Assembly (NCBI GenBank): GCA_034439895.1
Contig: JAWXBF010000013.1
Span: forward strand, 1,888-65,887
From: Deltaproteobacteria bacterium
Lineage (GTDB): Bacteria > Myxococcota_A > Polyangia > Fen-1088
Direction: 5' to 3'
DNA: 64,000 nt
Shown here: piece by piece, positions 5,871-58,660 of the stretch
How positions within the stretch are numbered: the first letter of the stretch is position 1
Layout of the letters: each line of letters opens with the position of its first letter
Position numbers and translations under genes: made by a program
Notes under the pieces: model-generated
Told to the model about the DNA's origin: nothing
Databases searched by the model: none
Seen by the model: only the letters and a program-made list of their open reading frames with translations

Positions 5871-7355
5871 ATGCGCGTAACCTGTTATCGGAACCATCGG
5901 TTGGTTCTCGCAATTCTTTTGGTGCCGCTGTTTGCGACGGTCTTGCCCGCCGATGTCAAGGCGCAATCCGGGGCCGCGGCAGCGCCAGAGGATCCGGCGC
6001 TGAATGCGGCGAAGGCGGCCTTCGAAGAAGCCCAAACCTTGTACATCAAGGAAAACTGGGACGGTGCTGCTGCAAAGTTCATTGCTGCTTTCGAGGCCAA
6101 ACCATTTGCGGCGTTCTTGTTTAATGCAGGCGCTGCTTACGAGAAGGCGAATCGGGTTGAACTCGCGATTGACTACTACCAGCGTTACATCGCCAAGGAT
6201 CCAAATGCAAAAGACGCGAGGGATGTTGTCCTTCGCATCGACGGTCTCAAACGAAACCTTGCGCTGAAATCGGGCACCCCGCCGGCGCCCGGCCAGCCGG
6301 ACCAGCCCGTCTCGATGGCGATGTTGCCCGCCATCGAAACCAAGGGCCTCGTCATCATCGACTCGAAGCCCGCCGACGCGACGATCTATCTGAACGACAA
6401 GGCCAACGGTCCGCTCGGCAATACCCGCTGGGAAGGCTCACTCGCCCCCCATCCCGTAACAATCATACTGGAAGCCCGCGGCTTCAAGCCCGAGAAGCGC
6501 AAGATCAATCCCCGTCCCGACAAGATACTTGAGATCTACATCGCGCTTTCCGAGGAACACTTTTTGGGTTGGGTCGAGATTGCGTCCAACGTTGCGGGTG
6601 CCGAGATCTTTCTTGACCGCAAGGAGATAGGCTCGATAGGCAAGACCCCGTTCACAGGTCACGTCAAACCTGGCAAACACAAGATCTGGATCGAGAAAGC
6701 TGGCTACGAGACGCTGGAAAAAGACATCGAGGTCCTCCCCGGTACCGCCGCCAGTCACCAGTTTGATCTGAACCGTGTTTCGGTTGGTTGGGTGGCCGTG
6801 CGAGGCAAAAATTCGAAGGGTGCGAAGCTGCTTGTCGATGGCAAGTTCGCCTGCGACACCCCCTGCCAGCACGCTGTCCCGACTGGAACGCACGCGGTGC
6901 GGGTGACCAAGGAGGGCATGGAAGACTTCCAGAGCACGGTGAAGGTCGAACAAGCCATCCAGACCACCGTCGACCTGGTGTTTTCGCCGAAGCCGCCCAA
7001 GACACGGGCCTGGACGACGGCGGTCATCAGCGCAATTTTCCTGGGGGGTGGCATCTACATGGGTCTCGAAGCAAATAACCTCGAAGACGCGCTTCGCAAA
7101 GAGAGCAACGCGACCCCTCTGCCCGTGGGGGCGCCTCTCGTCGACAGCGGTGACGATCGGGTACTCAAGGGAAAAATCTATGCGATTGGCGCCGACGTGG
7201 CGTTCGGTCTTGCAGCCATCACGGGCGTCGTCTCGCTCGTGAACTTCCTGTCGTCGGGTCCGGCAAGCACCGGTGAAATGGACGAAAAGACGATCGGCTT
7301 TGCGCCCGTGCCCATGTCTGACGGTGGTGGATTCGCAGCCTCGGGGAGGTTTTAA
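5871..7355 (+). CDS. Secreted TPR- and PEGA-domain protein with C-terminal TM anchor
   Basis: Signal peptide LVLAILLVPLFATVLPADVKA. TPR-like AAYEKANRVELAIDYYQRYIAKDP. Two to three PEGA-like modules (GAEIFLDRKEIG...GKHKIWIEKAGYETLEKDIEV; AKLLVDGKFACDTPCQHAVPTGTHAVRVTKEGMEDF). A hydrophobic helix near the C-terminus. Confidence 0.6.
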   Translation: MRVTCYRNHRLVLAILLVPLFATVLPADVKAQSGAAAAPEDPALNAAKAAFEEAQTLYIKENWDGAAAKFIAAFEAKPFAAFLFNAGAAYEKANRVELAIDYYQRYIAKDPNAKDARDVVLRIDGLKRNLALKSGTPPAPGQPDQPVSMAMLPAIETKGLVIIDSKPADATIYLNDKANGPLGNTRWEGSLAPHPVTIILEARGFKPEKRKINPRPDKILEIYIALSEEHFLGWVEIASNVAGAEIFLDRKEIGSIGKTPFTGHVKPGKHKIWIEKAGYETLEKDIEVLPGTAASHQFDLNRVSVGWVAVRGKNSKGAKLLVDGKFACDTPCQHAVPTGTHAVRVTKEGMEDFQSTVKVEQAIQTTVDLVFSPKPPKTRAWTTAVISAIFLGGGIYMGLEANNLEDALRKESNATPLPVGAPLVDSGDDRVLKGKIYAIGADVAFGLAAITGVVSLVNFLSSGPASTGEMDEKTIGFAPVPMSDGGGFAASGRF

Positions 7356-7357
7356 TT

Positions 7358-8872
7358 ATGGAAACGAACTGGATGAAACCTCTGTTCAAGTGCAGCGCCG
7401 TGGTGGGTGCCCTGGTTATCGGAACCCTCGGCTGCGACTGGCGAAAGCTGGATGAAGCGGTTAGCAACGCCCCCGTCGTCGCCGTCGAGGCACCCGGTGG
7501 ATACGCCGCGGATGACGTGGGGCGTTTGATCGTACCGTTGCCTTACGATCCGACCACGCCGGCTGTGATTGGGCGCTACGCGTTTTTCGGACAGACCCGC
7601 TCAAGCGGTGGTGTGGCGGAATTCGATGCAGCCGGGAAGGTCTCGGTCTACGCCATTCCGGACGCAGCCCTTTCACCGATTATGGCGGAATCGATTAACT
7701 CCGCCATCTGGGTCGGACCCAGGGCGGGGACGTTGTTGGTGGGCACCCAGGGTTTCGGCGGTGCAGCGGATTCGGGTGCAACCTGGTTCCTGGAGATCGC
7801 CTTCGCACCCGGGGCTGCACCCGTTTTTGCGATTACACCGCATGTCTCGACCGTTCCTCCCAACGATGCTGTGGAACCGACTCCGGACAAATTCTGGGGT
7901 GCGGCACTTGCGGTGGGCGAGGTGACTGGCAATGCCTTTGCAGACCAGGTCGGAATGAGCCGTGACCACGTGGTCCTCATCGAAGACGGCCTCACGAGTG
8001 ACCCGAGTAAGCCTCTCATTTCCACCAGCGGGACCAACTGCGAGGTTTCCCTCGACCTCTTCACCCTGGGCGACGGGCGTGTGAAAGTGCCCCGGCCCCT
8101 GGCCATCGCGGACATCGCGGTGGGTGGCGCTTCCGAGATCCTGGTGGGGTTGCCATACGGCGTGGCGCCCAACAAGGGTGCGGTTCGCATCATGCGCAAG
8201 GTGCCGAAGGATCCGCTGAACCCAGCGCTCGGTTCTACCCTCGACTGTCCCAACGAGTTTGTCGCCGCGCCCGATGCAACACCCGAGAGCGCCGCCGGTT
8301 TCGGTTCGTCGATCGCGCCGCTCGATCTGGATGGCGATGGCAAAGACGAATCGCTGCTCGTCGGGTCGCCTCCCGATCGGGCCTACATCATCAAGGGCCC
8401 GATCGCTGTCGATGAAGATACGCTCAAGCGCAATTTGCATGCGCCGATTCCTGCGCAAATTACCGTGTTCCCACCTGCGCCCGCCGCGTCGTTCGGCCTC
8501 CGCGTTGACGCATTTGATTTCGACGGCCAACCGGGAGACGAAATCATCGTTTCGGCGCCCGACCAGGCTGATGGCACCAAGGCACAGGCCGGCCAGGTGT
8601 TTATATTCAAGTGGGACCCGGTTACAAGCAAGGCCATCTACCGGTCGTCGGTGAAAGACAACCAGAGCGAATCGCTTGCGATGTTGGGGTACGACATTGC
8701 GGGCATGCCGTTCGAGACACCCGCATGTGCAGGAACGGCGAAGGCCCCTCAAAAAGGAACGCTGTTGTTGGCGGGGACCCGTGCGGAGATCTTCACCTAT
8801 TTCCGAACGCCCGTCGCGCCCGGAATCGCCACACCGTTGTTGGCCGAAGTTCCCGATCCGCGCTGTCAGTAA
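7358..8872 (+). CDS. Lipoprotein with FG-GAP/integrin-alpha-like repeats
   Basis: Lipobox ALVIGTLGC. Repeated DLDGDGKDESLLVGSP / FDFDGQPGDEIIVSAP motifs (FG-GAP Ca-binding-like). 3-nt gap from the upstream gene. Confidence 0.55.
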   Translation: METNWMKPLFKCSAVVGALVIGTLGCDWRKLDEAVSNAPVVAVEAPGGYAADDVGRLIVPLPYDPTTPAVIGRYAFFGQTRSSGGVAEFDAAGKVSVYAIPDAALSPIMAESINSAIWVGPRAGTLLVGTQGFGGAADSGATWFLEIAFAPGAAPVFAITPHVSTVPPNDAVEPTPDKFWGAALAVGEVTGNAFADQVGMSRDHVVLIEDGLTSDPSKPLISTSGTNCEVSLDLFTLGDGRVKVPRPLAIADIAVGGASEILVGLPYGVAPNKGAVRIMRKVPKDPLNPALGSTLDCPNEFVAAPDATPESAAGFGSSIAPLDLDGDGKDESLLVGSPPDRAYIIKGPIAVDEDTLKRNLHAPIPAQITVFPPAPAASFGLRVDAFDFDGQPGDEIIVSAPDQADGTKAQAGQVFIFKWDPVTSKAIYRSSVKDNQSESLAMLGYDIAGMPFETPACAGTAKAPQKGTLLLAGTRAEIFTYFRTPVAPGIATPLLAEVPDPRCQ

Positions 8873-10779
8873 GATCCGGCAGGCGCATCGGTGGAGATCC
8901 CGTCGAGCGTTTCACGCACCAGTCGCGCAAGGGCCTCCGCACCAAAGGGTTTGTGCAGCAGCCGAAACCGGTTGCGCTCGATGATTGCCATGGCGTCGCC
9001 CTCGGCAAATCCAGAAATTAGAACGATCCGCAGTTCGGCATTTGTCATCCGAAGCTCTTCGGCGAAGCTTGCGCCGTTGCCATCGGGCAGGCGAATGTCG
9101 GACAGCAGCATCGCAAACTTCCGGCGACCATACAGGTCTCGGGCTTCGGTAACCGATCCAGCCGCTTCGACTGTGTAGCCGTGGTCTTCAAGGATGCGCC
9201 TGGTGAGGCGACGAACGGCCGGCTCGTCTTCGAGCAACAAGATCGCTTCGGTCCCACCCGCTGAGCTTTGCGAACGCGGAGCACCGACCAGCGTCGATAG
9301 CCGAGTGGTCGTCGGAAGGTAGATCGTGAACGTCGAGCCGATGCCAGCTTGACTTGTGACACGAATGGCGCCGCCCGCCTGGGTCACAATGCCATGGCAA
9401 GTCGCAAGGCCCAATCCACTGCCCTCGATCGGGCCCTTGGTCGTGAAGAACGGCTCGAAGATGCGAGCCATGATCTCGGGAGGAATGCCGCTGCCGGTGT
9501 CACTTACCTCGATGACCACAAAGGATTCCCCCTTGATCTCGTCGTGGCGCCCGTCTCGTTGTTCGCCCGGGCGAACGCAGATCCGCAAATCGCCTCCGTC
9601 AGGCATTGCAGCTTGAGCATTGAGGGTGAGGTTCAAGAGCACCAGTTGTAGTTGAGCCACATCCAATTCAACCGGGGCTGTTGCCGATGAAACATCAACG
9701 TCAAGCCTCACCCGTTCACCGGCGGCCCGCGCAAGGATCGTTTGGCACTGTGCGACGGCCGCATTGAGCGAAACCACCTGAGCGTTGGTCGGAACCTTCC
9801 GGCCGAAGGTGAGCAGCGTCCGGGTCAGTTCAGATGCGCGTTTGCAAGACGTCCTTACGTCCTCGGCAAGGTCCATTGCGTCTTCCGACCTGGCAAAAGC
9901 TGGGCGCATCAACTCGACCGAGGCGGAGATCACAAAAAGAATGTTGTTAAAGTCGTGTGCAACGCTTCCCGCCAACCGTGCAAGGGCTTCCATGCGTTGC
10001 GCGTGGTTCAGTTTTTCTTCAAGTTTCTTGCGCTCGGTGATATCCTGGACGCCGCCTGTCATACGAATCAGAACGCCGTCTTTGAGCTCGGGTCGTACGT
10101 GATCGCGTAACCAGCGGATCTCGCCGTCGGGACCGACAATGCGGTATTCGGCGACCATGGGCTTGCCTGCTGCAACCCCGGCGTATACCGGACCCAGTGT
10201 CGGAAGATCATCGGGATGGATGATGCTGGTCCACCCGCCTTTTTGGGCGACCTGAAGGGCGGTGTATCCGGTGGCACGTTCAAAGGAGCCGGCGACGATT
10301 GAGGGCGCAAGTGGTGTGCCTTCGCGGACCTCGGCGACGTAGATGTAGTCTGACGCAAGTTCTGTAAAAATACGAAACTGAGCTGCCTGCAGTTCAACGG
10401 CCTTTTGGTGTGAAATATCCATCGCCGTACCAGCGAGGCGCAGCGGACTGCCTTGTCCATCGCTTTCCACGCGACCCTTGCCTCCAATCCAGCGGACAGA
10501 ACCGTCCGGTTTCAGAATGCGATGTTCGATGGAAAAAGATTGCAACCGAGTTGCGAGTGCCTCCTCGATGGCTTTCTGAACGGCGTCTCGATCTTCCGGG
10601 TGCAACAGAGCCGAGAATTCGGCAACGTTCTTTGGGAAGGCAGACACGGGTACCCCAAACAGGAGACCCATCTCAAGCGACCAGTTGACCCTATCGCTGG
10701 CAATTTCCCATTGCCAAACCCCGACCCCTGCACCCTGGACAGCCCATCGAAGCTGTTCGAGCGTAAATTCCGCTTCCAT
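8866..10779 (-). CDS. Hybrid sensor histidine kinase/response regulator with PAS domains
   Basis: PAS-like N-terminal segments. H-box SVAHDFNNILFVI. HATPase (DTGSGIPPEIMARIFEPFFTTK...GSGLGLA). C-terminal receiver (ILLLEDEPAVRRL...LSDIRLPDGNG). Confidence 0.85.
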   Translation of the reverse strand: MEAEFTLEQLRWAVQGAGVGVWQWEIASDRVNWSLEMGLLFGVPVSAFPKNVAEFSALLHPEDRDAVQKAIEEALATRLQSFSIEHRILKPDGSVRWIGGKGRVESDGQGSPLRLAGTAMDISHQKAVELQAAQFRIFTELASDYIYVAEVREGTPLAPSIVAGSFERATGYTALQVAQKGGWTSIIHPDDLPTLGPVYAGVAAGKPMVAEYRIVGPDGEIRWLRDHVRPELKDGVLIRMTGGVQDITERKKLEEKLNHAQRMEALARLAGSVAHDFNNILFVISASVELMRPAFARSEDAMDLAEDVRTSCKRASELTRTLLTFGRKVPTNAQVVSLNAAVAQCQTILARAAGERVRLDVDVSSATAPVELDVAQLQLVLLNLTLNAQAAMPDGGDLRICVRPGEQRDGRHDEIKGESFVVIEVSDTGSGIPPEIMARIFEPFFTTKGPIEGSGLGLATCHGIVTQAGGAIRVTSQAGIGSTFTIYLPTTTRLSTLVGAPRSQSSAGGTEAILLLEDEPAVRRLTRRILEDHGYTVEAAGSVTEARDLYGRRKFAMLLSDIRLPDGNGASFAEELRMTNAELRIVLISGFAEGDAMAIIERNRFRLLHKPFGAEALARLVRETLDGISTDAPAGSY

Positions 10780-10885
10780 TGCGGCCCCATATTAACAACA
10801 TATGACCGAAATCCACCATGCACTTTGCGCCGAGATCGATCGAATGGCCAATTTGAACAACGACACTCTCGTGTAATGTAGAGCA

Positions 10886-12238
10886 ATGCGTCTTTCAACC
10901 CTACTCCGGCCGGACATTGAGGATGTCCTGCGCAACAACCCGGAGGAGGCGGCAGCCGTGGCGGAGGAGCTCCCGCCGGCAGATCTGGCGGAGACAATCG
11001 AGTCGCTCGATGACGGGCTGGCGGTGCGCTGGCTGGGCATGTTGAGCCGTGACGTTGCGGTCAAGGCGCTGGACCACATGGACCCCACCCGCCGGGTCGA
11101 GCTGTTCTCGAAGCTTGACCGAGTTCTGGCAGCCGACCTCGCTGCCGACATGTCGTCGGACGATCGCGCGGACATGTTCCAGAATCTCGAGCCTGAGCTG
11201 CGGAGCGACGTCCTCGGTCGCATGCCGGGGGCGGAATCCCGCGACATCCGGGATCTGATTCAATACCCGGAGAACACCGCCGGCGGCATCATGACCACGG
11301 ATTTCGTGGCGCTTTCCGCCGAATGGACCGTGGAAAAGGCGATCGAAGAGATCCGCCGCACGGCCGAAGAAACGGAAACCGTCTACGAGGTCTTCGCCGT
11401 GGATCCTTATGGCACCCTGGTTGGGTCGGTTTCGTTGCGCGACCTTCTGTTCGCGCGCGGAGCCCAGCTGGTTTCCGCGATCATGAACTCGGATGCGGTT
11501 TCGGTTCCTGCAGAAAAGGATCAGGAAGAAGTCGCCCAGATTTTCCAGCGCTACGACTTGCTTGCATTGCCGGTCGTCGATTCAAAACGAAAGCTGCTTG
11601 GCATTGTCACGGTCGATGACGTGGTTGACGTCATCAAGGAAGAGCAAGCCGAAGACATCCAGAAACTTGGCGCTGTTCGGCCAACCGAGGGAACGTATTT
11701 TCAAACGGACTTCTATACGTTTCTTCGCAGCCGCGCGGTGTGGCTGATCGTTTTGTTCATTGGACAAACCTTCACGGTGGGTTTGCTCAAGCGTTATGAG
11801 GGTGTGGTCAGTGCGGCGACCTTCGTTGCGTTCTTCATTCCGCTCATCATTTCATCCGCGGGCAACACGGGAAATCAGGCCGCGTCTCTTGTGATCCGTG
11901 GGATGGCCCTGGGTGAATTTACCACGGGCGACGCGTTTCGAATCTTGTGGCGTGAGACGCGCATCGGGTTGGCGTTGGGTGGCATCCTCGCCATGATGGG
12001 GCTTATTACGTCGCTGGTGCTTGCAAGCGAAGGTGGGGCAGGGTTGGCATTTTCGGTGGCGATTTCCCTGGTGTCTTGTGTTACGATTGGTTCGGTAGCG
12101 GGAGCGGGGTTGCCGCTGTTTATCCGGCGCATCGGATTTGACCCGGCCCTTGCATCGGGGCCTTTCATTGCGTCGATGCTGGATGTGATTGGGATTGTGA
12201 TCTACGTGCAGACGGCGATCTGGTTGATGGGGCTTTAG
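10886..12238 (+). CDS. mgtE: Magnesium transporter MgtE
   Basis: N-terminal MgtE-N domain. Tandem CBS domains. TM domain with GNTGNQAASLVIRGMALGE and the MgtE pore helices. Confidence 0.9.
   Translation: MRLSTLLRPDIEDVLRNNPEEAAAVAEELPPADLAETIESLDDGLAVRWLGMLSRDVAVKALDHMDPTRRVELFSKLDRVLAADLAADMSSDDRADMFQNLEPELRSDVLGRMPGAESRDIRDLIQYPENTAGGIMTTDFVALSAEWTVEKAIEEIRRTAEETETVYEVFAVDPYGTLVGSVSLRDLLFARGAQLVSAIMNSDAVSVPAEKDQEEVAQIFQRYDLLALPVVDSKRKLLGIVTVDDVVDVIKEEQAEDIQKLGAVRPTEGTYFQTDFYTFLRSRAVWLIVLFIGQTFTVGLLKRYEGVVSAATFVAFFIPLIISSAGNTGNQAASLVIRGMALGEFTTGDAFRILWRETRIGLALGGILAMMGLITSLVLASEGGAGLAFSVAISLVSCVTIGSVAGAGLPLFIRRIGFDPALASGPFIASMLDVIGIVIYVQTAIWLMGL
12206..12235. repeat. Direct repeat copy A (3' terminus of mgtE)
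   Basis: gtgcaGacggcgatctggTtgatggggctt, matching 13922..13951 at 28/30 positions. Confidence 0.7.
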
Positions 12239-12378
12239 GGGCGAGCAAGCCGCTACCGTTTATTACGGTGTGAATACCGCTCAACCGGTGACAGTGCGAA
12301 TTCTGCGCCTTGGCGCGGAATAAGGTGGCTAACCGAGGTCTGCTTTGGGTTAGTCTCGGGGCAGGGAACGGAGTGTTG

Positions 12379-13899
12379 ATGAAATTTCGGTCGCTATTGG
12401 TTAGTCCGGTGTTGTTCGCGCTGTTGTTTGCATGCTCGGACAGAGTGGCGCTCGACCTCCAGCCGAACGGAGGCACAGTCCCGACCGATTTTCCGAACGG
12501 GGGCGACATCGGCGTGATGGTTCCAGGACCTACCGGCGGAACCGGCGGCGGCGTGGTAGGCGGGACTGGCTCGGGTCCAACCGGTGGAACCAACGGCGGT
12601 GGTATCACCGTGGAACCAGGTTTTATAGATTTCGGTTTGGTCGCCGTGGGGTCTCAGATCTCGCGCTCGTTCACCATTCGCAATACAGGGTCCACGCCGC
12701 TCGCCCCGCTTGAGCTTCTATTTGGAGCCAATGCGACCCAATTCAGCCTAACAGACAATTGTGTCATCCCGCTCGCGCCTTACGTGTCGTGTGTGGTTTC
12801 GGTTTGGCTTACACCCACCGCTCCCGGCGTGGTGACTACAACGTTGACCGTGTCGTCGGCGACCGCGTCGTTTGTGGTGAAGCTATTCGGCTCCAGCGGC
12901 GGTCCGCCCTCGATCGCGTTGTCACCGAGCAGCCACGCGTTCGGAAACGTCGATCTGAATGCCACCAGCTTGCCGTCGTGGCAGTTCACCGTCACTGCGA
13001 CAGGAGGCACGCCCGGGACATATACCGGTGCTTTGTCGCTCACGATTCCAACCGGATTCAAGGTTGGGAAGGATACCTGTACAGGCCAGTCGCTTTCGCG
13101 TAACGGGGGTTCGTGCACGTTGCTTGTGCTGTCCGACGGCCGACCCGGGGTTTACAACGGTACGTTACGTGTGACGTCCGCCATGGGTGGTGAGGCGCTC
13201 GCTACGCTTACCATGTTCGCTTCGGGCGGTATGGTGACAGGCATGATCGGACACTGGCAGTTTGATGAAGGCTTCGGTACGGTCGTCAAGGACAGCTCGG
13301 TCAATGCGAATCACGGAACGGTTCGCCAGGGATCAACGTCGTCGGCCGCATTGCACCCCGCGCCGGTATGGGAAAGCGGCAAGAAGGGCCGTGCGCTGCG
13401 CATCGACGGGCTCGACGATTGGGTTAACGTTCCCGATTCGGATAGTATCGACAACACCGGTATCAACAATCAGGTTTCGATTTCCGCCTGGATCAAACTG
13501 GACCGGTACAACTCGCGCAGGCCGTACAACGTTGTGGCTCAGCGTCACATGGTTGGCACCCGTGTTGAGCAGTTCTTCATGGGTCTCAACAATGGCGCAC
13601 CGGCTGTTGGTATCAGCTTCTTCTATGGCATTGGTATAACCAACGTTCCGCTGAACGAGTGGGTGCACATGGCGATGACTTACGACGGCATCCAATAGTG
13701 CGGCTACATGAACGGCGTCGTGTTCGTCTGTCAGGACGTGGGCTGGCCTACCGCAACCGACAAAACGCCCTTCACCATGGGTGCTGGCATCGCCGTAGAA
13801 GATATCGACGAGCATATGGTTGGCCTCATCGACGAGGTCCGCCTGTACGACATCCAACTGTCGCCAGCGCAAATAGCCGGCTTGTACAACGCGCCCTAG
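12379..13899 (+). pseudogene. Lipoprotein with ASH/'choice-of-anchor' beta-sandwich and C-terminal LamG (concanavalin-like) domain, interrupted by an in-frame TAG at 13696-13698
   Basis: Lipobox LLFAC. Gly-rich linker. ...TYDGIQ*CGYMNGVVFV... then FTMGAGIAVEDIDEHMVGLIDEVRLYDIQLSPAQIAGLY fit the LamG consensus (TYDG..lrlYvNG....ftiGa...f.G.iDEvRiYnraLsaaEI). ORFs 12310..13698 and 13708..13899 are in the same frame, separated only by the TAG. Confidence 0.6.
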
Positions 13900-13921
13900 C
13901 CACGGCCGAATGCGATCTTGC

Positions 13922-13951
13922 GTGCAAACGGCGATCTGGCTGATGGGGCTT
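13922..13951. repeat. Direct repeat copy B (displaced degenerate copy of the mgtE 3' terminus)
   Basis: gtgcaAacggcgatctggCtgatggggctt, 23 nt after the LamG-gene stop. Matches 12206..12235. Confidence 0.7.
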
Positions 13952-14076
13952 CGATCTCCCGAAAGCACACAAAATCCATCTGTGTCACGCCGTGTTTAGC
14001 AGCCTCGGCCATTGCAATTCGAGTGGCCTCATCAACGGAAAGGCGGGTCACGGGGCTTTTTTCCTGGCTCGACACC

Positions 14077-14457
14077 TTATATCCGATGACCGCCGTCCAG
14101 CTTCCCCAACCGTTTATCAAACGTTCCGAGCGGAAGATGGCCAGCTTTCCGAGCCACCTCAAGAACTAGACAATCGGTGAACCCGAGGGAGGGGTGCTTT
14201 TTGAACGATTCGAGTGCGGACCCCACGACGTCGGCGTCCTGGAGTATCAGGTTTTTATGCAGCAATAGCATCTCGATTGCCCTGACAAGCTGAGTCGAGC
14301 TTAGGTCGTACACACTACTCAACACCCAGCCCGTCTCCTGTAGCACAAGGAGCGAAACCCAGGCGCCTCCTTTGATGAAGTCATCGGCCGCGGCAGACTG
14401 CTTTTCATCGTCCCTCGTGAGCAATCGGACGAGGACGTTGGTGTCAACGGCGCGCAT
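14077..14457 (-). CDS. vapC: PIN-domain toxin VapC
   Basis: MRAVDTNVLVRLLTRDD... is the N-terminal PIN acidic motif. 126 aa. Overlaps the upstream antitoxin by 14 nt. Confidence 0.8.
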   Translation of the reverse strand: MRAVDTNVLVRLLTRDDEKQSAAADDFIKGGAWVSLLVLQETGWVLSSVYDLSSTQLVRAIEMLLLHKNLILQDADVVGSALESFKKHPSLGFTDCLVLEVARKAGHLPLGTFDKRLGKLDGGHRI

Positions 14458-14704
14458 GTCGCTCCTTGATGTTGCGCTTGATCCCTTCCTTGAGTTCGGC
14501 GAGGGTCTTGGCCTTGGTGCCAGTCGGGAAGAGGGCTTTGTTTATTTCCTCCGAGCTGTACTGGCCCAACCGCCTCACCACGATCTTACCGTTCTCCTCG
14601 TCCCATTCGAGAACGGCGCCAGGGCCAACCCCAAGAATGCGCCGAACCTCGGCCGGAACGGAAATCTGACCTTGAGCAGTAACCTTCGATTTTGCAAGAG
14701 GCAT
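14444..14704 (-). CDS. vapB: AbrB/MazE/SpoVT-type antitoxin VapB
   Basis: MPLAKSKVTAQGQISVPAEVRRILGVGPGAVLEWDEENGKIVVRRL is a swapped-hairpin AbrB-like DNA-binding domain. Immediately 5' of vapC. Confidence 0.75.
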   Translation of the reverse strand: MPLAKSKVTAQGQISVPAEVRRILGVGPGAVLEWDEENGKIVVRRLGQYSSEEINKALFPTGTKAKTLAELKEGIKRNIKERHARR

Positions 14705-14996
14705 GGGACTACATTACCAGGGTAATGCGGAACGTGCAAACGGGCGGGTTCGACGGTAGCTTTTCGCCATGATTCTTTGTCCCCGGGCACAGTTCGAGTC
14801 CTGGTGGCGAGCGGGTGAACGATCAAGTCTATGTCCTTGCTCGCACAGTGGGGTATTGGCGCGCGCCTCCAAACCGAGCGCGATACAAAAGACGAAGCGG
14901 GGCTGAGCCTCCAACCCTCAGCGCTTGCCACCTGCCTGCTCTCCTTATGTCACGACGCAGATTTCGCACCGCGCCGCAAGCCCGCCGCCCGCCCAT

Positions 14997-15890
14997 TCAC
15001 GTCCCCGGAATCACGCGCTGAAACAACAGCGTCAACGCAAAACACCCCATCGCCATGAACGACAACGCCACCGTTCCACTGGCCGACAGAAACATCGCAT
15101 CCAGCAGGCTGATGCTGGCAATGAGCCATGGAACAGCAAAGCGCGGATTCGATTTGCGCTTACCAAGGCCAACCGCTGCCGCAACACCAATTGCGACTGC
15201 AACCGAGTACGCAAGGCTAACCGCCAGTCCCGCCAGCGAGATTTGCAACACGATTGCACCAAGCACAATCGGCACCAACATCAGCAACACTGGCCAGGTG
15301 CGACCCAGCGCGGCCTTGGTTTCGTGTTTCGCAATATAGGAAAGCCCGATCAAATGACAAAGCAACAGACCGGCCCCAATATACAGCAATGACTGGGGCG
15401 ACCCCGCTGTCCATCCCGCCGTGATGTAGACCGCCACGCGGCACAGTCCCATTAACAGCGGCGACAAAGCGTTCTTTTTGTGATGCAGATCGTAAGCCAG
15501 AATCAAACCCGTCAACGCGAGCGTCGCAAGGAAAGGGCGCCACGAAAAAAACATCCCAAGCCCCGACATCGTGCCCACAATCCCTACGCCCGCTGCCATC
15601 AAAACACCACCCAACACAAACACCGCCGTCGCCGAGATCAACCCCGCCGGAATCGGACGTTCCTTCCGGTGTTGAGCATCCCACCCCCGATCAAAGGCAT
15701 CGTTCAACACCATGCCGGCAACGTAAAGCAGCGACATCGCGATCGCCAGCGGAAGCAAAATTCGCAGATTAAGCGAGGCACCCGCAAGTGCAGCACCCGC
15801 AAATACGTTGGTCCACACCGTGGGCAGGTTTGAAACTCGCCCCAGTACCAGCACCGTTCGAAGGATCGATTGCGGCTTTGCGAGCGTCAT
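14997..15890 (-). CDS. UbiA-family aromatic prenyltransferase (EboC-like)
   Basis: Polytopic membrane protein. Asp-rich motif region LNDAFDRGWDAQHRKERPIPAGL (NDxxDxxxD-like). Start at MTLAKPQ, whose ATG overlaps the upstream stop as ATGA. Confidence 0.75.
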   Translation of the reverse strand: MTLAKPQSILRTVLVLGRVSNLPTVWTNVFAGAALAGASLNLRILLPLAIAMSLLYVAGMVLNDAFDRGWDAQHRKERPIPAGLISATAVFVLGGVLMAAGVGIVGTMSGLGMFFSWRPFLATLALTGLILAYDLHHKKNALSPLLMGLCRVAVYITAGWTAGSPQSLLYIGAGLLLCHLIGLSYIAKHETKAALGRTWPVLLMLVPIVLGAIVLQISLAGLAVSLAYSVAVAIGVAAAVGLGKRKSNPRFAVPWLIASISLLDAMFLSASGTVALSFMAMGCFALTLLFQRVIPGT

Positions 15891-17101
15891 CGTTGTTGTT
15901 CCACAACCCACTCCAGTTCGCGCGCGATCGCTTCGTCCACTGGCATGGCGCGGAGTTCGGCTGGCAACACGTCCCAGGTATAGGTCTCGACCTCAAGGTG
16001 TTGCGAAAGCGGTTCCCGATGGTGATGCGCCAGCAATTCGCGCACGAAATCGCCCGTGTTGTTGAACCCCGGACACAACCCCATCAAATTCGACTGAAAC
16101 AGAGGCACATGGAAATGAACTCGCCACCGTTCGTCACGCGGGCTCGGGTGTGCCGCCAGTGCTTCCGACAGATCCAGAAAACGTTGCAGACCACCCGCAG
16201 CATCCTGAATCACCGTTTGGTGTAGGTACACACCCTCCTCACCAAAACGTCGTAACACAGCAAGGCCTTCGGGCGAAGCCGGATAAAGCTCAAGGCCCGC
16301 CGTTATTTGCAATTTCAGGATCCGGACACCCGATTGGCGCACGCACGAAAGAATATCCGCGATCGACTCAAATTCGACTGCGGCGTGACAGGTATCCAGG
16401 CAGATACCGACGTGTCGCCGCAACGCAAGCTTTGCCTCGGCCAAAGATAGTCCCATTTGACCGGCCAGTGACTGCGCCGCTGCGTCTGAAAAAATCCACT
16501 CCGAAATGAAGTCGATCGCCTCGGCGTTGGTTTCCAGCAGACAATGCGGTTCAGGTTCAAGCGCGATTCCGATGATGGGTCCGCCCTCTTGGACGATTCC
16601 GACCAGGGTGGCAGCATGGCGGACGATGTTTTGCGCAATCGTCGCACGGACGCCCTCGCCATCGCGCAGGCGGAAACAACCAGGTACCGTGCTGATCGAG
16701 CCTTCAAGATCACCCGTTCTCGGCAGAAGGGCCGCCAGCAATCGCGCAAGTCTGTCGCTGTAGGTGACGCGTTCCTCCTCGGTCCAGTCCGGGCGGTAGA
16801 CCTGTTCCTTGACCGGTTGACCGTGAAAGGGGCCGTAGGGAAAGCCGTTGATCGTAAATACGTACATTCCCGACTCGGCGAGAAATTCGCGAAACGCCTG
16901 CAGCGTCGACGGTTCTTCCAGTTCAAGAGCCGCTTTTGCGGATAACCGCAATCCGATGCCGAAAGGGGCGTTCGGACTGACCCGCGCTTTCACGGAAACC
17001 GTGTGACGTTTCAGGTTGGCGAGGACCTCGGCCCAGCTTTCGCCCGGGTGGATGTTCGTGCAGTAGGTCAGATGACCCGCACGCGACCCCGCTTGCTTCA
17101 T
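15887..17101 (-). CDS. TIM-barrel sugar-phosphate isomerase/epimerase-like protein (EboE-like, xylose-isomerase-like fold)
   Basis: About 400 aa, HLTYCTNIHPGESWAEV... The size and the context between the DHQS-like and UbiA genes match EboE. Family assignment is by context and fold-level resemblance, not verified. ATGA overlap at both ends. Confidence 0.45.
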   Translation of the reverse strand: MKQAGSRAGHLTYCTNIHPGESWAEVLANLKRHTVSVKARVSPNAPFGIGLRLSAKAALELEEPSTLQAFREFLAESGMYVFTINGFPYGPFHGQPVKEQVYRPDWTEEERVTYSDRLARLLAALLPRTGDLEGSISTVPGCFRLRDGEGVRATIAQNIVRHAATLVGIVQEGGPIIGIALEPEPHCLLETNAEAIDFISEWIFSDAAAQSLAGQMGLSLAEAKLALRRHVGICLDTCHAAVEFESIADILSCVRQSGVRILKLQITAGLELYPASPEGLAVLRRFGEEGVYLHQTVIQDAAGGLQRFLDLSEALAAHPSPRDERWRVHFHVPLFQSNLMGLCPGFNNTGDFVRELLAHHHREPLSQHLEVETYTWDVLPAELRAMPVDEAIARELEWVVEQQR

Positions 17102-18345
17102 GCGCCAAGCGCCTCGCGCCGGGCGGAAGGCGCAACCGCGAGCTCCATTGCGCGATAGATCGCCTCGAAGCGTTCGACGGAAAGCGCGTGGACCTCGGTG
17201 CCCTTGCCGATGGCGGCCAGCATGGTGACGGTCAGATCTCCGCCCAGGTGCTCGCGGAAGTCCTCGATCCCAGCAAATACAGCGCGCTTGCCGTCAGGAC
17301 CTAACAACAACAGGGCTTCATGCCAGACGGGAAGTCCCAGCATACGCAACACGGCATCGATACGCACGGCGGCGGCCTCGGACAGTAGTCCAATCGCAGC
17401 CGAGTAACGACTGTCGGTGCCGATGCCAATGCCCACGGCCTCGCCGTGTCGCAATTCGTGGTGAGTCAACGATTCCAGCTTGTGAGCAGACCAATGTCCG
17501 AAATCCAGGGGCTTGGCACTGCCAAGCTCGAAAGGATCGCCGCCCTCTGCGATGTGTTGTAGATGCAGTTCGGCGCACCGTCGTACGAGATGTGCCACGG
17601 CTTCGGGTTGGCCGGTCGCGAGGGCGGGGGCGTTGCCCTCGATCCAGTCAAAAAACGCGGCATCCCGGATCAGGGCGACCTTGACTGCCTCGGCGTAGCC
17701 GGCGATTCGATCGCGTGCGGACAGCGTTGCCAGTAGATCAAAGTCGTTGATGACCGCAAAGGGTGGAAAAAATGTTCCGAGGTAATTCTTGGCGCCAAAG
17801 GCATTGACCCCGTTTTTGACCCCGACACCGGAATCGTTCTGGGACAGCACCGTGGTCGGCATGCGAACGGTGCGGACGCCGCGATGAATGGCTGCGGCTG
17901 CGTATCCAACCGCGTCGAGTACCGCGCCCCCACCCACGATCACCACGAACGACTGCCGATCGATTCGGTGCTCGAAAAAGGTGGTGTGCAACTTTGCGAG
18001 CAAGGTCGGATCGTTTTTGCAGGCTTCGCCGCCCGGAAACGACAGGGGAGCCGTGACCAGTTCGAGACGATCGGCGTGGGAACGGAAGTAGTTCTCGATG
18101 GCGCCCGTCAAATCCGGGTTCAGTTCAAGGACGCCGGCATCCACGATCACGATCGCGCGATGTCGGCGCTTTGGCTCAAGCGCCGTCAAGGTACGGACCA
18201 GCGACGGATTCGCGGGATCAAACGCGCCGCGCGTAAAACACACGTCGTAGCCGAAGGGCACCGCGAACTGCTGGCGGAGCGTGCCGGTCGAGTCCATTCG
18301 TTCATAGATAACATGTGACAGCCTGGGAGCCTTCGTCCCGAACAA
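17098..18345 (-). CDS. 3-dehydroquinate-synthase-like sugar phosphate cyclase (EboD-like)
   Basis: DHQS-family motifs VIVGGGAVLDAVGYAAA, GVRTVRMPTTVLSQNDSGVGVKNGVN and metal-binding H..E....H region. 415 aa. Confidence 0.7.
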   Translation of the reverse strand: MFGTKAPRLSHVIYERMDSTGTLRQQFAVPFGYDVCFTRGAFDPANPSLVRTLTALEPKRRHRAIVIVDAGVLELNPDLTGAIENYFRSHADRLELVTAPLSFPGGEACKNDPTLLAKLHTTFFEHRIDRQSFVVIVGGGAVLDAVGYAAAAIHRGVRTVRMPTTVLSQNDSGVGVKNGVNAFGAKNYLGTFFPPFAVINDFDLLATLSARDRIAGYAEAVKVALIRDAAFFDWIEGNAPALATGQPEAVAHLVRRCAELHLQHIAEGGDPFELGSAKPLDFGHWSAHKLESLTHHELRHGEAVGIGIGTDSRYSAAIGLLSEAAAVRIDAVLRMLGLPVWHEALLLLGPDGKRAVFAGIEDFREHLGGDLTVTMLAAIGKGTEVHALSVERFEAIYRAMELAVAPSARREALGA

Positions 18346-18371: not shown

Positions 18372-20843
18372 TTGGTGCACTTGCCTATTTTCGTGGGTTC
18401 CCTGGCGTTTGGAATGGCGCTGGGTCTGATTTTGCCCCGCGAAGCCTTCCCGTGGACCGTGGGTGGCGTTAGCCTGGTTGCGATCGCCTTTGCCGCAAAG
18501 CGCTACGGGTTCATTGCGGGCATCCTGGTGCTCGTTTCTGGCGGTCTGTATGGGTCGATGCGTGCGACGGCGCACATCGACGGTCCGATTGGCGCAGCAC
18601 TCGCGATTGCGAGGACAGTACACGGGATGGGGCATGTCGATCTGGTGGAGTTGCGCGACGGACGTGGCCCGCGTCTCGTGTTGTCGTCCATTGCCTTTTC
18701 CGGGAAAGCCAGGGCCGGTTGGGATGAGCGGATCGAATTGTTCGTATCACACGGCACGACCTCCCTTTTGCCGGGCGACTGGGTTGCCTTTCAAGCGTTG
18801 CTCGAGGGTCCCCGTGGTTTCGCGAATCCGGGCGCAACCGACGGACGATTGAGCGCTGCCACCCGGGGCATTGTGGCGCGCGGCCATGTGAGTGCCACGG
18901 GGGAGCTTCGGATGGTGGCGCCGGGATCGTCGTGGGGTCCGCGCCGGCTCGCCCATCAGGCTCGGCAAGCCATGCGCAGACAACTCGAGCGTGCGCTCTC
19001 GGCCCAGGTCGCACTCTTTCTACGCACGGCCGTGTTGGGCGAACGTGCGGCCTCGGGAGCGGATGTCGAGGCCGGCTTCAAGGCCGCCGGGGCGACGCAC
19101 GCGCTGTCGGTCTCGGGACTGCACCTCGCTGCCGTTGCCGCAGTGTTGTTTTTGCTCGTGCGACGATTGTTTGGTTTGTCGACCCGCCTGAGCCTGCGCG
19201 CCAGTCCATCGTTGCTCGCAGCGCTTCTGTGCATACCCGCAGTCGTTTTTTATACGCTCGTAACCGGCGAAGCGATTGCCACCTGGCGATCGGCGCTGAT
19301 GGCGTCGGTCGTTTTCGGCGCACTGGTCGTCAATCGAAAATTCTCGCTCGCACACGGCGTTGCGATGGCGGCCCTGTTGGTGCTGATCGATTCACCGTTG
19401 TGGCTGATCGATCCGTCGTTTCAACTGTCCTTCGTTTCGGTTATTGCGCTTGGTCTGTTCTCCCGGGCGTTTGCCCCGCAAGAAGCGGTCGACGGTTCTG
19501 GACGCGGGTTGTGGTACGCGTCGCGTCGGTGGTTGTTGAGCGCGCTCGGGGCAACCACAGCCGCGGGGCTTTGCACGACACCTCTTGTCGCCCACCACTT
19601 CGGCGAGATAACGCCGGCTGCGTTCCTCGGCAACCTCGTTTTGACTCCCCAGGTCGAGCTGCTCATCGTTCCGCTCGGACTCTTTGGCGCCGTGCTTGCG
19701 CTCATCCATCCGATCCTCGGCTGGCTGCCGTTGTCACTGGCCGAATACGCGACGCGACTCGCCCTCGTCACCGCAGAGGCCTTCGCAAACCACGCCCCCA
19801 TCTGGCGTTGTCGCTATCCCAATCCCCTCGAAACGGCCTGTCTTACGCTCGGCGTGGCTTGCGCGTTGATGGCGTTTCGCAGCGTCCGTCAAGGCGCCGA
19901 ACCCCGACGGATCCGTCGCTGGATCAAGGTATCCGCGGTGTGGCTCGCAGGTGCGATCCTGTCGCTCTCGTATCGCGAGTTGTCTCGCAGGCTTTCGAAC
20001 GAGGTCGAGATCACCTTCATCGACGTGGGGCAAGGGGATGCGGCGCTGGTGATTGGGCCCCGCGGATTCGTGATGTTGGTGGATGGCGGCGGATTACCAG
20101 GCTCTGATTACGATGTGGGCAAACGGATCGTCGAACCGCTGTTGCGGCGCAAGGGCATCGCCAAAATCGATCTTGCGGTGCTGTCCCACGCGCATCCGGA
20201 CCACATGTTGGGCCTGATGCACGTTTTCGACCGATTCGAGATCACCACCCTCTGGGCGGCCGTTGCACCTGGCGAAAGTGAGCTCTTCGATGCGATGGTC
20301 AAACGCGGTCGAGAAAGAGGCACGCAAATGCCCATTCCGCTGCCGTTGTCTCGCGACGGGCTTGCCCTCGAACCGCTTGGACCCATGCTCTCCTCACCCG
20401 ATGGCCAGGGCGGATGGCGCGACACGATTGGCCGTCCCGAGGGCCTTGGCGCCAACGACGCATCCCTGAGTGTTCGGCTGTCGTTTGCGGGTCGCAGTGT
20501 TTTGTTTGCGGGCGACGTCGAGGCTGCGGGTGAAACCGAACTGTGCGGGCGTGATCGCGCGGGACTTTTCGGAAACGTCGGATTGCATGCGGACCTGCTG
20601 AAAGTGCCGCACCACGGAAGCCGGACGTCGTCATCGGCGGAGTTTCTTGATGCCGTGGCGCCGTCCATCGCGATCATTTCCGATGGCGTCAACAATCGCT
20701 TCGGATTTCCCCACGCCGAAGTTCTCGAGCGATACCAGGCGCGGCCGATCCGGTTGTTGCGAACCGATCAGTCGGGCGCAATCACGATTCGGATCGAGCC
20801 GTCTGGAAAAATCGACGCAACCTGCGTACTCGGATGTCGATAA
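18372..20843 (+). CDS. comEC: DNA internalization competence protein ComEC/Rec2 with C-terminal metallo-beta-lactamase domain
   Basis: N-terminal polytopic competence domain. C-terminal MBL (TFIDVGQGDAALV...LSHAHPDHMLGL...HHGSRTSSS...AIISDG). Confidence 0.85.
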   Translation: MVHLPIFVGSLAFGMALGLILPREAFPWTVGGVSLVAIAFAAKRYGFIAGILVLVSGGLYGSMRATAHIDGPIGAALAIARTVHGMGHVDLVELRDGRGPRLVLSSIAFSGKARAGWDERIELFVSHGTTSLLPGDWVAFQALLEGPRGFANPGATDGRLSAATRGIVARGHVSATGELRMVAPGSSWGPRRLAHQARQAMRRQLERALSAQVALFLRTAVLGERAASGADVEAGFKAAGATHALSVSGLHLAAVAAVLFLLVRRLFGLSTRLSLRASPSLLAALLCIPAVVFYTLVTGEAIATWRSALMASVVFGALVVNRKFSLAHGVAMAALLVLIDSPLWLIDPSFQLSFVSVIALGLFSRAFAPQEAVDGSGRGLWYASRRWLLSALGATTAAGLCTTPLVAHHFGEITPAAFLGNLVLTPQVELLIVPLGLFGAVLALIHPILGWLPLSLAEYATRLALVTAEAFANHAPIWRCRYPNPLETACLTLGVACALMAFRSVRQGAEPRRIRRWIKVSAVWLAGAILSLSYRELSRRLSNEVEITFIDVGQGDAALVIGPRGFVMLVDGGGLPGSDYDVGKRIVEPLLRRKGIAKIDLAVLSHAHPDHMLGLMHVFDRFEITTLWAAVAPGESELFDAMVKRGRERGTQMPIPLPLSRDGLALEPLGPMLSSPDGQGGWRDTIGRPEGLGANDASLSVRLSFAGRSVLFAGDVEAAGETELCGRDRAGLFGNVGLHADLLKVPHHGSRTSSSAEFLDAVAPSIAIISDGVNNRFGFPHAEVLERYQARPIRLLRTDQSGAITIRIEPSGKIDATCVLGCR

Positions 20844-58290: not shown

Positions 58291-58361
58291 TCGGGGATCG
58301 TCTAACGGCAGGACGCGAGTTTCTGGTTCTCGCTATTGGGGTTCGAATCCCTATCCCCGAA
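58291..58361 (+). tRNA. tRNA-Gln: tRNA-Gln (anticodon CTG)
   Basis: Cloverleaf: acceptor TCGGGGA/TCCCCGA, D-arm GTCT..GGAC, anticodon arm CGAGT-ttCTGgt-TCTCG with a U·U closing mismatch, T-arm TGGGG-TTCGAAT-CCCTA. CCA not encoded. Confidence 0.65.
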
Positions 58362-58382
58362 CACAATTTAATATCGAACCAC

Positions 58383-58453
58383 TCGGGGATCGTCTAATGG
58401 CAGGACGCAGGCCTTTGGAGCCTGCTATCAAGGTTCGACCCCTTGTCCCCGAA
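58383..58453 (+). tRNA. tRNA-Gln: tRNA-Gln (anticodon TTG)
   Basis: Acceptor TCGGGGA/TCCCCGA. Anticodon arm CAGGC-ctTTGga-GCCTG. T-arm CAAGG-TTCGACC-CCTTG. Same acceptor/D-arm as the first tRNA. Confidence 0.75.
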
Positions 58454-58502
58454 CATTCCCGTGCTTCTTCCCTGGCTTGAAAAACTGAATATCGAACTTT
58501 CC

Positions 58503-58574
58503 GGCCCCATAGTCTAGCGGTTAGGACGGCGCCCTCTCACGGCGCAGTCCCGGGTTCAATTCCCGGTGGGGTCA
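58503..58574 (+). tRNA. tRNA-Glu: tRNA-Glu (anticodon CTC)
   Basis: GGCCCCATAGTCTAGCGGTTAGGAC-GGCGC-ctCTCac-GGCGC-...-CCCGGGTTCAATTCCCGG-TGGGGTC-A. Closely resembles bacterial tRNA-Glu. Confidence 0.75.
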
Positions 58575-58660
58575 CAACTTTTCGCCGGCGCTTGCGCGAC
58601 CTTGCGTGTCGCAAAACCGCGGGTTTCGGGTGAACCGGGGCTCGGCTCTACAAAAGCGGG

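Follow-up and report, generated by a model that had tools for sequence, protein, structure and literature searches.

A second, non-coding copy of the 3' end of the housekeeping transporter gene mgtE was found 1.7 kb downstream of the gene in a 64,000-nucleotide stretch of DNA from a Deltaproteobacteria bacterium of the Polyangia (contig JAWXBF010000013.1 of assembly GCA_034439895.1, positions 1,888 to 65,887; the whole stretch is referred to as the window). Comparison with two related genomes suggests that this downstream copy (copy B) is a fossil mgtE terminus without function, lying in a hypervariable islet that is framed by mgtE and a UbiA/EboC-like gene. For its origin we favour homology-facilitated illegitimate recombination (HFIR) anchored in mgtE, which would have displaced the old gene end and been followed by deletions, a reading to which we give an even chance of being right. 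Coordinates of the features are collected in the table below.

The direct repeat joins positions 12205-12235 (copy A) with 13921-13951 (copy B) at 29/31 identical positions in the window sequence, one base longer than the 28/30 match that a first-pass annotation of this DNA had reported. Copy A reads CGTGCAGACGGCGATCTGGTTGATGGGGCTT and is followed by TAG, and copy B reads CGTGCAAACGGCGATCTGGCTGATGGGGCTT and is followed by CGA. Copy A comprises the last 10 codons of the functional mgtE (peptide VQTAIWLMGL), with TAG GGGC as the downstream letters. Copy B encodes VQTAIWLMGL in the matching frame too, both mismatches being synonymous (CAG/CAA and TTG/CTG). The weaker similarity upstream, earlier put at ~10 nt, was real but slight: TCTTG-CGTG against TCTA-CGTG, which differ by one mismatch and one indel, lengthens the copy to ~36 nt. 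There is no stop codon in copy B, which reads on into the antisense of p', the truncated relic of a small gene here called p. Many MgtE homologs run 2-15 amino acids past MGL, and on this basis the read-on of copy B (RSPESTQNPSVSRRV, then a stop) was considered as an ancestral MgtE tail; this candidate was rejected, as the read-on is the antisense of p'.

When up to three mismatches were allowed, the 64-kb window held no match besides copies A and B, and the repeat found no match at all in 100 dinucleotide-preserving shuffles, in agreement with the first-pass annotation that the similarity is beyond chance. Nine independently assembled contigs (ENA, JGI and Logan) with the same MgtE were 99.9-100% identical to the window over 10.8-15 kb, where overlapping; copy A was unchanged in 9/9 contigs and copy B in the 6/6 contigs that reach its position. 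Mis-assembly, including the collapsed duplication that had been named as a possible refutation, is excluded because the nine independent contigs agree; the repeat is genuine, and neither random nor a product of assembly. Its small size is all that speaks for chance similarity or an artefact, and the shuffles, the concordant assemblies and an identical peptide with synonymous differences only leave that explanation a virtually negligible probability.

To place the repeat in context, the window was compared with the two other genomes of the clade available. One, L002, is a 10-kb contig of the metagenome-assembled genome 'Myxococcales bacterium GL111_DN_concoct_63'; it holds the last 185 nt of mgtE, over which it is 92.4% identical to the window, and ends before UbiA. 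The other, L016, is a 94.5-kb JGI contig that was used as the outgroup; it is 85.6% identical to the window across 2,236 nt of mgtE and the region upstream of it, and 83% identical on the side of UbiA. A protein search with MgtE showed an identity gap, from 100% to 63%; the relatives at ~63% identity keep the upstream synteny and have heme-biosynthesis genes downstream, and the 90% protein cluster of MgtE contains one other sequence, that of L016. The window and L016 have a common frame, PAS-kinase/mgtE on the left and UbiA/EboE/3-dehydroquinate synthase (DHQS)/ComEC on the right, and L002 shares the mgtE end. Homology between the window and L016 ends at 12234 and picks up again at 14985.

Within this frame the content of the islet differs in all three genomes. 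From mgtE to UbiA, the window carries a DUF1552 relic, a LamG pseudogene, the mgtE relic, p' and vapBC, and L016 carries a DUF6242_C protein gene, three tandem LamG paralogs, a 3-dmu-9_3-mt-like gene and PemK with an antitoxin. L002 carries, from mgtE on, a two-component system, DUF1552, a first p copy (p1), a gene for a 311-aa HExxH protein, a DUF1552 relic, an intact LamG gene, a fragment of the 3-dmu gene and a second p copy (p2). A conserved anchor (mgtE, 85.6-92.4% DNA identity) beside a variable block is the layout expected of HFIR, as is a non-coding piece of the anchor's 3' end displaced beyond the newer block, which was found both in the window (copy B) and in L002 (~9022-9047).

LamG genes, whether orthologs or paralogs, lie downstream of mgtE in 3/3 clade genomes. 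A second mgtE end was not found in L016, where the best non-self score was 14 compared with 30 in the window. Because LamG follows mgtE in all three genomes, and does so in the outgroup L016 without the repeat, LamG is a resident gene of the islet and not delivered cargo. The first-pass annotation had suggested aligning the mgtE loci of relatives, to see whether mgtE is directly followed there by the sequence to the right of copy B. None of the loci showed that junction, LamG following mgtE in L002 and L016 instead; and the arrangement that had been named as evidence against an insertion, the same order without repeats, is essentially that of L016, with three LamG genes after mgtE and no second mgtE end. 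The three LamG/ASH paralogs of L016 stand in tandem at 12836-17245, encode 410, 515 and 499 aa and are mutually 83-86% identical in parts, a local gene amplification within the islet.

The LamG/ASH lipoprotein gene of the window is interrupted by an in-frame TAG. Positions 2-90 of the Laminin_G_3 profile are matched before the TAG and 96-151 after it, in one frame, and the gene was split into calls of 439 and 63 aa in every assembly long enough to cover it. The L002 codon at this site is CAG, and the L002 gene is intact (527 aa). A fixed nonsense mutation has thus made a pseudogene of the window copy. The segment between the two copies had been said to carry only the LamG lipoprotein gene; LamG is indeed there, but as a pseudogene, and it is accompanied by the DUF1552 relic.

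We examined the three junctions that flank the copies. At the first (J1, 12236-12242), the stop region of mgtE, TAGGGGC, passes into the relic of a DUF1552 3' end with a 6-nt microhomology (AGGGGC); the intact DUF1552 gene reads ...GAAGGGGC at this point. The relic is 36/39 identical to L002 5320-5358, the end of an intact 505-aa gene (...EGASKPLPFVTV, then a stop) that occupies L002 3839-5356. L002 also has a ~90-nt DUF1552 relic of its own (6750-6840), upstream of its LamG gene. At the second junction (J2, 13915/13916), the homology of the LamG downstream sequence to L002, which ends at L002 8542, stops, and the window goes over to TCTTG and copy B. The microhomology here is TG[C/T]GA, between the LamG downstream sequence and mgtE position -36 (mgtE TGTGA). 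Past J2, L002 carries on in a sequence that is also present after the third LamG gene of L016. At the third junction (J3, 13951/13952), the end of copy B, CTT, is fused to the interior of p, with CTT as the microhomology; the p gene has CCCTTCAATCTCCCG at that point.

Every one of these junctions abuts a gene fragment and has a short microhomology, and the analogous L002 junction has ATC. These microhomologies are suggestive; at 2-6 nt, each would fairly often be expected by chance. Because both edges of copy B are breakpoints, the relatives' homology going on at the left and the right edge cutting into p, copy B is a 31-36-nt island between the two, and its length reflects erosion and not the extent of a recombination core.

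The fragment to the right of J3, p', retains the N-terminal third (~40 codons) of a gene that encodes 82-90 aa in L002. It is 88.7% identical to L002 5490-5613 and 82.3% to L002 9169-9281, and in tblastn the identity was 76-79% across 38-42 aa. Compared with the L002 arrangement, in which the core of the repeat is followed by TAG, a spacer and p2, ~126 nt are missing at p'. The vapBC module, which had been placed immediately beyond copy B, is separated from it by this 124-nt relic.

A parallel relic was found in L002 at ~9022-9047. It reads ATCTGG-TGATGGGGCTGTAGGGGGCA and includes a 17/17 exact match to the L002 mgtE terminus, with a self-BLAST E value of 0.005 and a local alignment score of 38, where background reached at most 28. 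Its place, between LamG and p2, corresponds to that of copy B in the window. The stop codon and ~6 nt of native downstream sequence are retained in the L002 relic, and the p2 stop follows 14 nt further on, a layout that supports an ancestral adjacency of mgtE and a convergent p. Directly to its left stands TCACGTCCCCGGAATCA, the stop codon and last codons of UbiA, identical in the window (14997-15013) and in L016, so that the termini of both frame genes are fused head-to-tail in L002. The fusion to the UbiA terminus indicates that the L002 block between mgtE and the relic was a complete islet, taken from a chromosome that had this frame and severed 17 nt inside UbiA, as opposed to a mobile element with ends of its own. 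Two further candidates in L002 were rejected: a third decayed mgtE end at 6775-6804 had a score (25) equal to background and aligned better as the ~90-nt DUF1552 3' relic, and a degenerate core beside p1 (GGTGATGTGTTGGGGTCTT) was not above background.

An Rfam scan of the window gave no family at copy A or copy B, no promoter or terminator call and no tRNA coincides with either, and the GC content is even across the region. Copy B could in principle be a functional cis element, that is, a regulatory or RNA motif in common with the mgtE 3' end, but nothing positive points that way save its position in the tail of a short minus-strand open reading frame (ORF) call. The absence of an Rfam match and of any overlapping promoter or terminator call, its absence from L016, its different truncation in L002 and the gene debris on its flanks make this highly improbable.

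Three codons distinguish the mgtE ends. In the order Gln, Leu and last Leu, they are CAG, TTG and CTT in copy A of the window; CAA, CTG and CTT in copy B; CAA, CTG and CTG in the functional end of L002; and CAG, TTG and CTG in L016. The L002 relic lacks the Gln codon and has -TG and CTG at the other two. Copy B equals the functional mgtE end of L002 over 30/30 nt, and it was considered as a foreign allele on this account; the candidate was downgraded, as the two sites cannot be polarised with so distant a genome as L016 and a fossil of the window lineage's own gene end would give just as tree-like a pattern. The simplest tree-like reading would take copy B as the fossil of its own lineage's mgtE end, with CTT in common with copy A and two states in common with L002. 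The last codon is concordant within each genome (CTT/CTT in the window, CTG/CTG in L002) and discordant between genomes, and the relics start at different mgtE positions (-21 in L002, -31 to -36 in the window). The agreement of the last codons within genomes, together with the differing relic starts, suggests that the events were separate, lineage-specific and recurrent.

The sequences show the repeat, the three junctions with their flanks in the relatives, a lack of recombinases in the islets and ORFs scanned, LamG as a resident of the clade, and the L002 relic; the mechanism, the donor and the order of events we infer as follows. The ancestor of the window lineage would have had mgtE directly followed by the convergent small gene p. 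Chromosomal DNA of a related strain, carrying mgtE and another islet (the DUF1552 relic and LamG), would have recombined homologously within the mgtE anchor, and the far end of the donor, just past LamG, would have been attached by an illegitimate join, through a microhomology of a few bases, ~36-38 nt before the recipient mgtE stop. The resulting order would be a functional mgtE end (copy A), the LamG block, the old mgtE end (copy B) and p. Later deletions at microhomologies (J3 and probably J1) would have taken out the stop codon and the spacer together with the 3' portion of p, and LamG would have gained its nonsense mutation.

Several points weigh against HFIR in this form. An extant genome with mgtE directly followed by p was not found, homologs of p being very rare; a search of p homologs for this 'empty' layout gave just three tiny contigs, all with the HExxH-p pair and without mgtE. 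Only three genomes of the clade were available, L002 with 185 nt of mgtE, and neither the donor nor the breakpoint inside mgtE is demonstrable. The microhomologies, at 2-6 nt, are individually weak evidence, and the 17-nt UbiA match is convincing by position alone, exactly at the terminus of the right frame gene and fused to that of the left one: L002 and the window have further 16-17-mers in common by chance, at least one of them a 17-mer. That two lineage-specific events both ended in the last 21-38 nt of mgtE would be a coincidence, for which a site-specific mechanism is more natural. The DUF1552 relic accompanies the LamG block in both the window and L002, which could instead point to one older event with gene conversion afterwards.

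Part of the same evidence would also fit a duplication in situ, by tandem duplication or template switch, in which the segment from ~36 nt before the mgtE stop to past LamG was doubled head-to-tail and a deletion from the second LamG into p left the 31-36 nt. Copy B shares CTT with copy A and otherwise has the states shared with L002, the tree-like pattern of a fossil. The junction of the UbiA and mgtE 3' ends in L002 is topologically head-to-tail, as in a tandem, the two paralogous p copies of L002 are 89-90% identical, and the L016 islet shows tandem LamG amplification, all of which resemble tandem-duplication junctions with deletional decay. The two halves of the supposed L002 tandem, however, share almost nothing but p, and the window holds no trace of a second LamG block or of a second DUF1552-relic copy. 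An independent large deletion would moreover be needed to bring copy B beside p, whereas L002 shows the mgtE end with its native stop and downstream sequence next to p2. Duplication in situ belongs to the same class of illegitimate recombination as HFIR and explains the adjacency of relic and p in both genomes less well; we regard it as possible but unlikely.

Genomic islands, integrative and conjugative elements (ICEs) and integrative and mobilizable elements (IMEs) integrate at the 3' ends of protein genes and restore the gene between attL and attR, and integrase-less cis-mobilizable elements (CIMEs) form by accretion, as with ICESt1 and ICESt3 at fda. The first-pass annotation had read the mgtE repeat in this way, as the footprint of a site-specific 1.7-kb integration that supplied a replacement 3' end. 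A lost or in-trans tyrosine or serine integrase would then target the mgtE 3' end, copies A and B would be the attL and attR of a CIME-like remnant, and repeated integration would have produced the L002 relic. The locus does resemble such pairs: the last ~30 nt of the gene are directly repeated and mgtE is intact and ends in copy A, which is the classic footprint; a short gene-bearing segment is bracketed; the mgtE terminus was hit by two lineage-specific events (window and L002); and toxin-antitoxin (TA) modules, common in islands, are near (vapBC in the window, PemK in L016).

The remaining evidence makes a decayed pair of attachment sites decidedly unlikely. Domains of integrases, recombinases and transposases were sought in the islet (12.2-15 kb), the gene calls of ~0.9-22 kb, 30 ORFs from 20-64 kb and the islets of L002 and L016, and none was detected in the three islets or in the scanned window ORFs. 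The earlier statement that no integrase is present was thereby borne out for the islet and the ORFs scanned, and the search it had advised for an integrase at the mgtE loci of relatives yielded none in the islets of L002 or L016. The bracketed gene is resident in the clade, LamG being found in L002 and L016, in the latter without the repeat, and no empty site was found in these relatives. The boundaries of the repeat are breakpoints into other genes and not element ends, they vary by genome, the displaced ends beginning at different mgtE positions in the window and L002, and the L002 block before the relic ends in a chromosomal UbiA fragment.

The advised search for the repeat core elsewhere gave no attP-like copy. 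The core was absent from viral contigs (0 matches) and plasmids, phages gave just partial matches at E = 0.01 in Erwinia jumbo phages, and exact or degenerate scans of metagenome contigs gave 0 matches and then 9 unrelated chance matches. The mgtE terminus was not duplicated at five other mgtE loci, and no read-through form of MgtE, as a recombined empty site would encode, was present in the 90% cluster, which consists of two sequences. The core was also considered as an Xer/dif-like or integron attC-like site, and this candidate was rejected because no dyad symmetry of the dif or attC kind was seen on inspection by eye. These results do not sustain the proposed integration. Of the earlier suggestion of a decayed remnant or a short segmental duplication, what stands is a downstream copy that is a displaced, non-functional mgtE 3' end left by rearrangement; the integrative element is not supported.

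A more specific form of the attachment-site reading, which we consider quite improbable, would make the last ~40 nt of mgtE (ACGTGCARACGGCGATCTGGYTGATGGGGCTK-TAG-GGGC) a real attachment site, used repeatedly in the Polyangia/Myxococcota lineage by an in-trans recombinase, with the islet blocks as integrase-less cassettes that accreted in tandem and then decayed. The cassettes would be the LamG block, the block of the two-component system and DUF1552, and the HExxH/p module. The attachment-site model, if true, implies an empty-site junction in which mgtE...GATGGGGCTT is joined to CGATCTCCCG and a circle junction of the form ...CCGAATGCGATCTTG-core-TAGGGGCGAGCAAGCC.

HFIR with displacement of a gene 3' end and orphan downstream genes has been proposed for the effector-immunity arrays of the Vibrio type VI secretion system (T6SS) and for Rhs and contact-dependent inhibition (CDI) loci (PMC5361080, citing de Vries & Wackernagel 2002, Prudhomme et al. 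2002 and Jackson et al. 2009). In the T6SS model, sequential displacement of effectors leaves 3' remnants and orphan immunity genes, and the C-termini of Rhs proteins are displaced likewise (PMC5361080). The mgtE locus resembles the T6SS and Rhs loci in several ways: a conserved anchor gene borders a block of changing content, past the newer block comes a displaced piece of the anchor's 3' end and after it an orphaned small gene (p'), no integrase is present, and the process recurs in sister lineages; short microhomology at the junctions is a further, suggestive likeness. It differs from them in that the anchor is the housekeeping transporter gene mgtE and not a polymorphic toxin gene and that the displaced piece, tiny at 31-36 nt, has eroded further; the mechanism proposed for mgtE is read from the sequences of three genomes.

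The small gene p is found at full length as part of a two-gene module with the HExxH protein gene (311 aa and ~90 aa), in L002 (5380-6597, minus strand) and in three unrelated soil or farmland metagenome contigs (L018-L020). The HExxH protein had no Pfam or NCBIfam match, and p had no matches. The module may be a toxin/immunity-like pair. Because full-length p is paired with the HExxH protein in L002 and L018-L020, p' and p2, which stand beside the mgtE relics, are orphans.

We take the locus to be one more recombination scar of a familiar kind, such as genome shuffling ordinarily leaves behind, with no new biology or mechanism implied. It is nevertheless a cautionary case: a highly significant repeat of a gene 3' end, synonymous differences and a TA module nearby mimic a pair of attachment sites, and comparison with two relatives exposes the repeat as debris of recombination. 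Pipelines that search for islands by their flanking repeats would call it wrongly. The relics of mgtE, DUF1552 and UbiA termini would extend 3'-end displacement, a pattern mostly discussed for polymorphic-toxin loci, to housekeeping genes in an uncultured myxobacterial lineage, and they mark the interval between mgtE and the ebo-like genes as a recombination hot spot.

Table. Features of the mgtE-UbiA interval (window positions unless L002 is named)
Feature	Position	Strand	Remarks
mgtE (450 aa)	10886..12238	+	Pfam MgtE_N, CBS, MgtE; conserved left frame gene
Copy A	12205..12235	+	last 10 mgtE codons; allele CAG/TTG/CTT
DUF1552 (HXXSHH) 3' end relic	12237..12275 (36 nt at 12239-12274)	+	GASKPLPFITV, then stop; directly past the mgtE stop
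LamG/ASH lipoprotein pseudogene	12382..13899	+	in-frame TAG at 13696-13698
LamG downstream sequence common with L002	13900..13915	+	homology stops at 13915/13916
Copy B	13916..13951	+	strong part 13921-13951, weak extension 13916-13920; non-coding mgtE 3' end relic
p', truncated small-gene relic (124 nt)	13949..14072	-	N-terminal third (~40 codons); gene of 82-90 aa in L002
vapC (PIN)	14077-14457	-	Pfam PIN, E = 5e-13 over the full profile; intact
vapB (AbrB/MazE-type)	14444-14704	-	MazE_antitoxin, E = 8e-10; TIGR01439 AbrB; intact
UbiA/EboC-like prenyltransferase gene	14997..15911	-	Pfam UbiA; conserved right frame gene
L002 composite junction	9004-9047 (L002)		3-dmu-9_3-mt-like gene fragment, TCAC, 17 nt of UbiA 3' end, ~25 nt of mgtE 3' end with stop

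The left frame gene was identified as mgtE with 381.5 bits against NCBIfam TIGR00400 (cut-off 232.75). The right frame is an ebo-like cluster (14997-18345, minus strand) of UbiA/EboC-like, EboE and 3-dehydroquinate-synthase-like genes, the UbiA/EboC-like gene being the first, and a ComEC gene (18372-20843) follows it. EboE matched NF035939 (422 bits, cut-off 250) and the 3-dehydroquinate-synthase-like protein matched PRK06203 (553 bits); the best NCBIfam matches of the UbiA-like protein, SCO3242 and EboC, were both below cut-off. The vapC and vapB genes overlap by 14 nt, and a PIN toxin gene preceded by a small gene for an AbrB/MazE-fold antitoxin is the arrangement of a type II TA module. This vapBC is particular to the window lineage: it is absent from L016, which has PemK and an antitoxin instead, and was not found in L002.

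A second TA pair (Unstab_antitox and ParE_toxin) lies at ~1595-2129 of the window, as judged from the gene calls at L003 710-1244, between pseudouridine synthase and thiolase genes; L016 lacks the pair at this location. On the left of mgtE, a gene for a PAS-histidine kinase-receiver hybrid (8866-10779, minus strand) stands between an FG-GAP gene and mgtE in the window and L016. Two of the ~63%-identity relatives (L013 and L015) have FG-GAP directly followed by mgtE, the kinase gene being absent there, and the PAS kinase gene thus appears to be a second clade-specific insertion beside mgtE. An Rfam scan of the region upstream of mgtE (10780-10885) found no M-box (Mg2+) riboswitch and no other family. 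A 26-nt imperfect inverted repeat (10873-10898 and 14692-14717, 81% complementary) has arms that overlap the start codons of mgtE and vapB; its quality is about that of other chance inverted repeats of the region. The only Rfam matches in the window were three tRNAs at 58291-58575: tRNA-Gln(CTG), tRNA-Gln(TTG) and tRNA-Glu(CTC).

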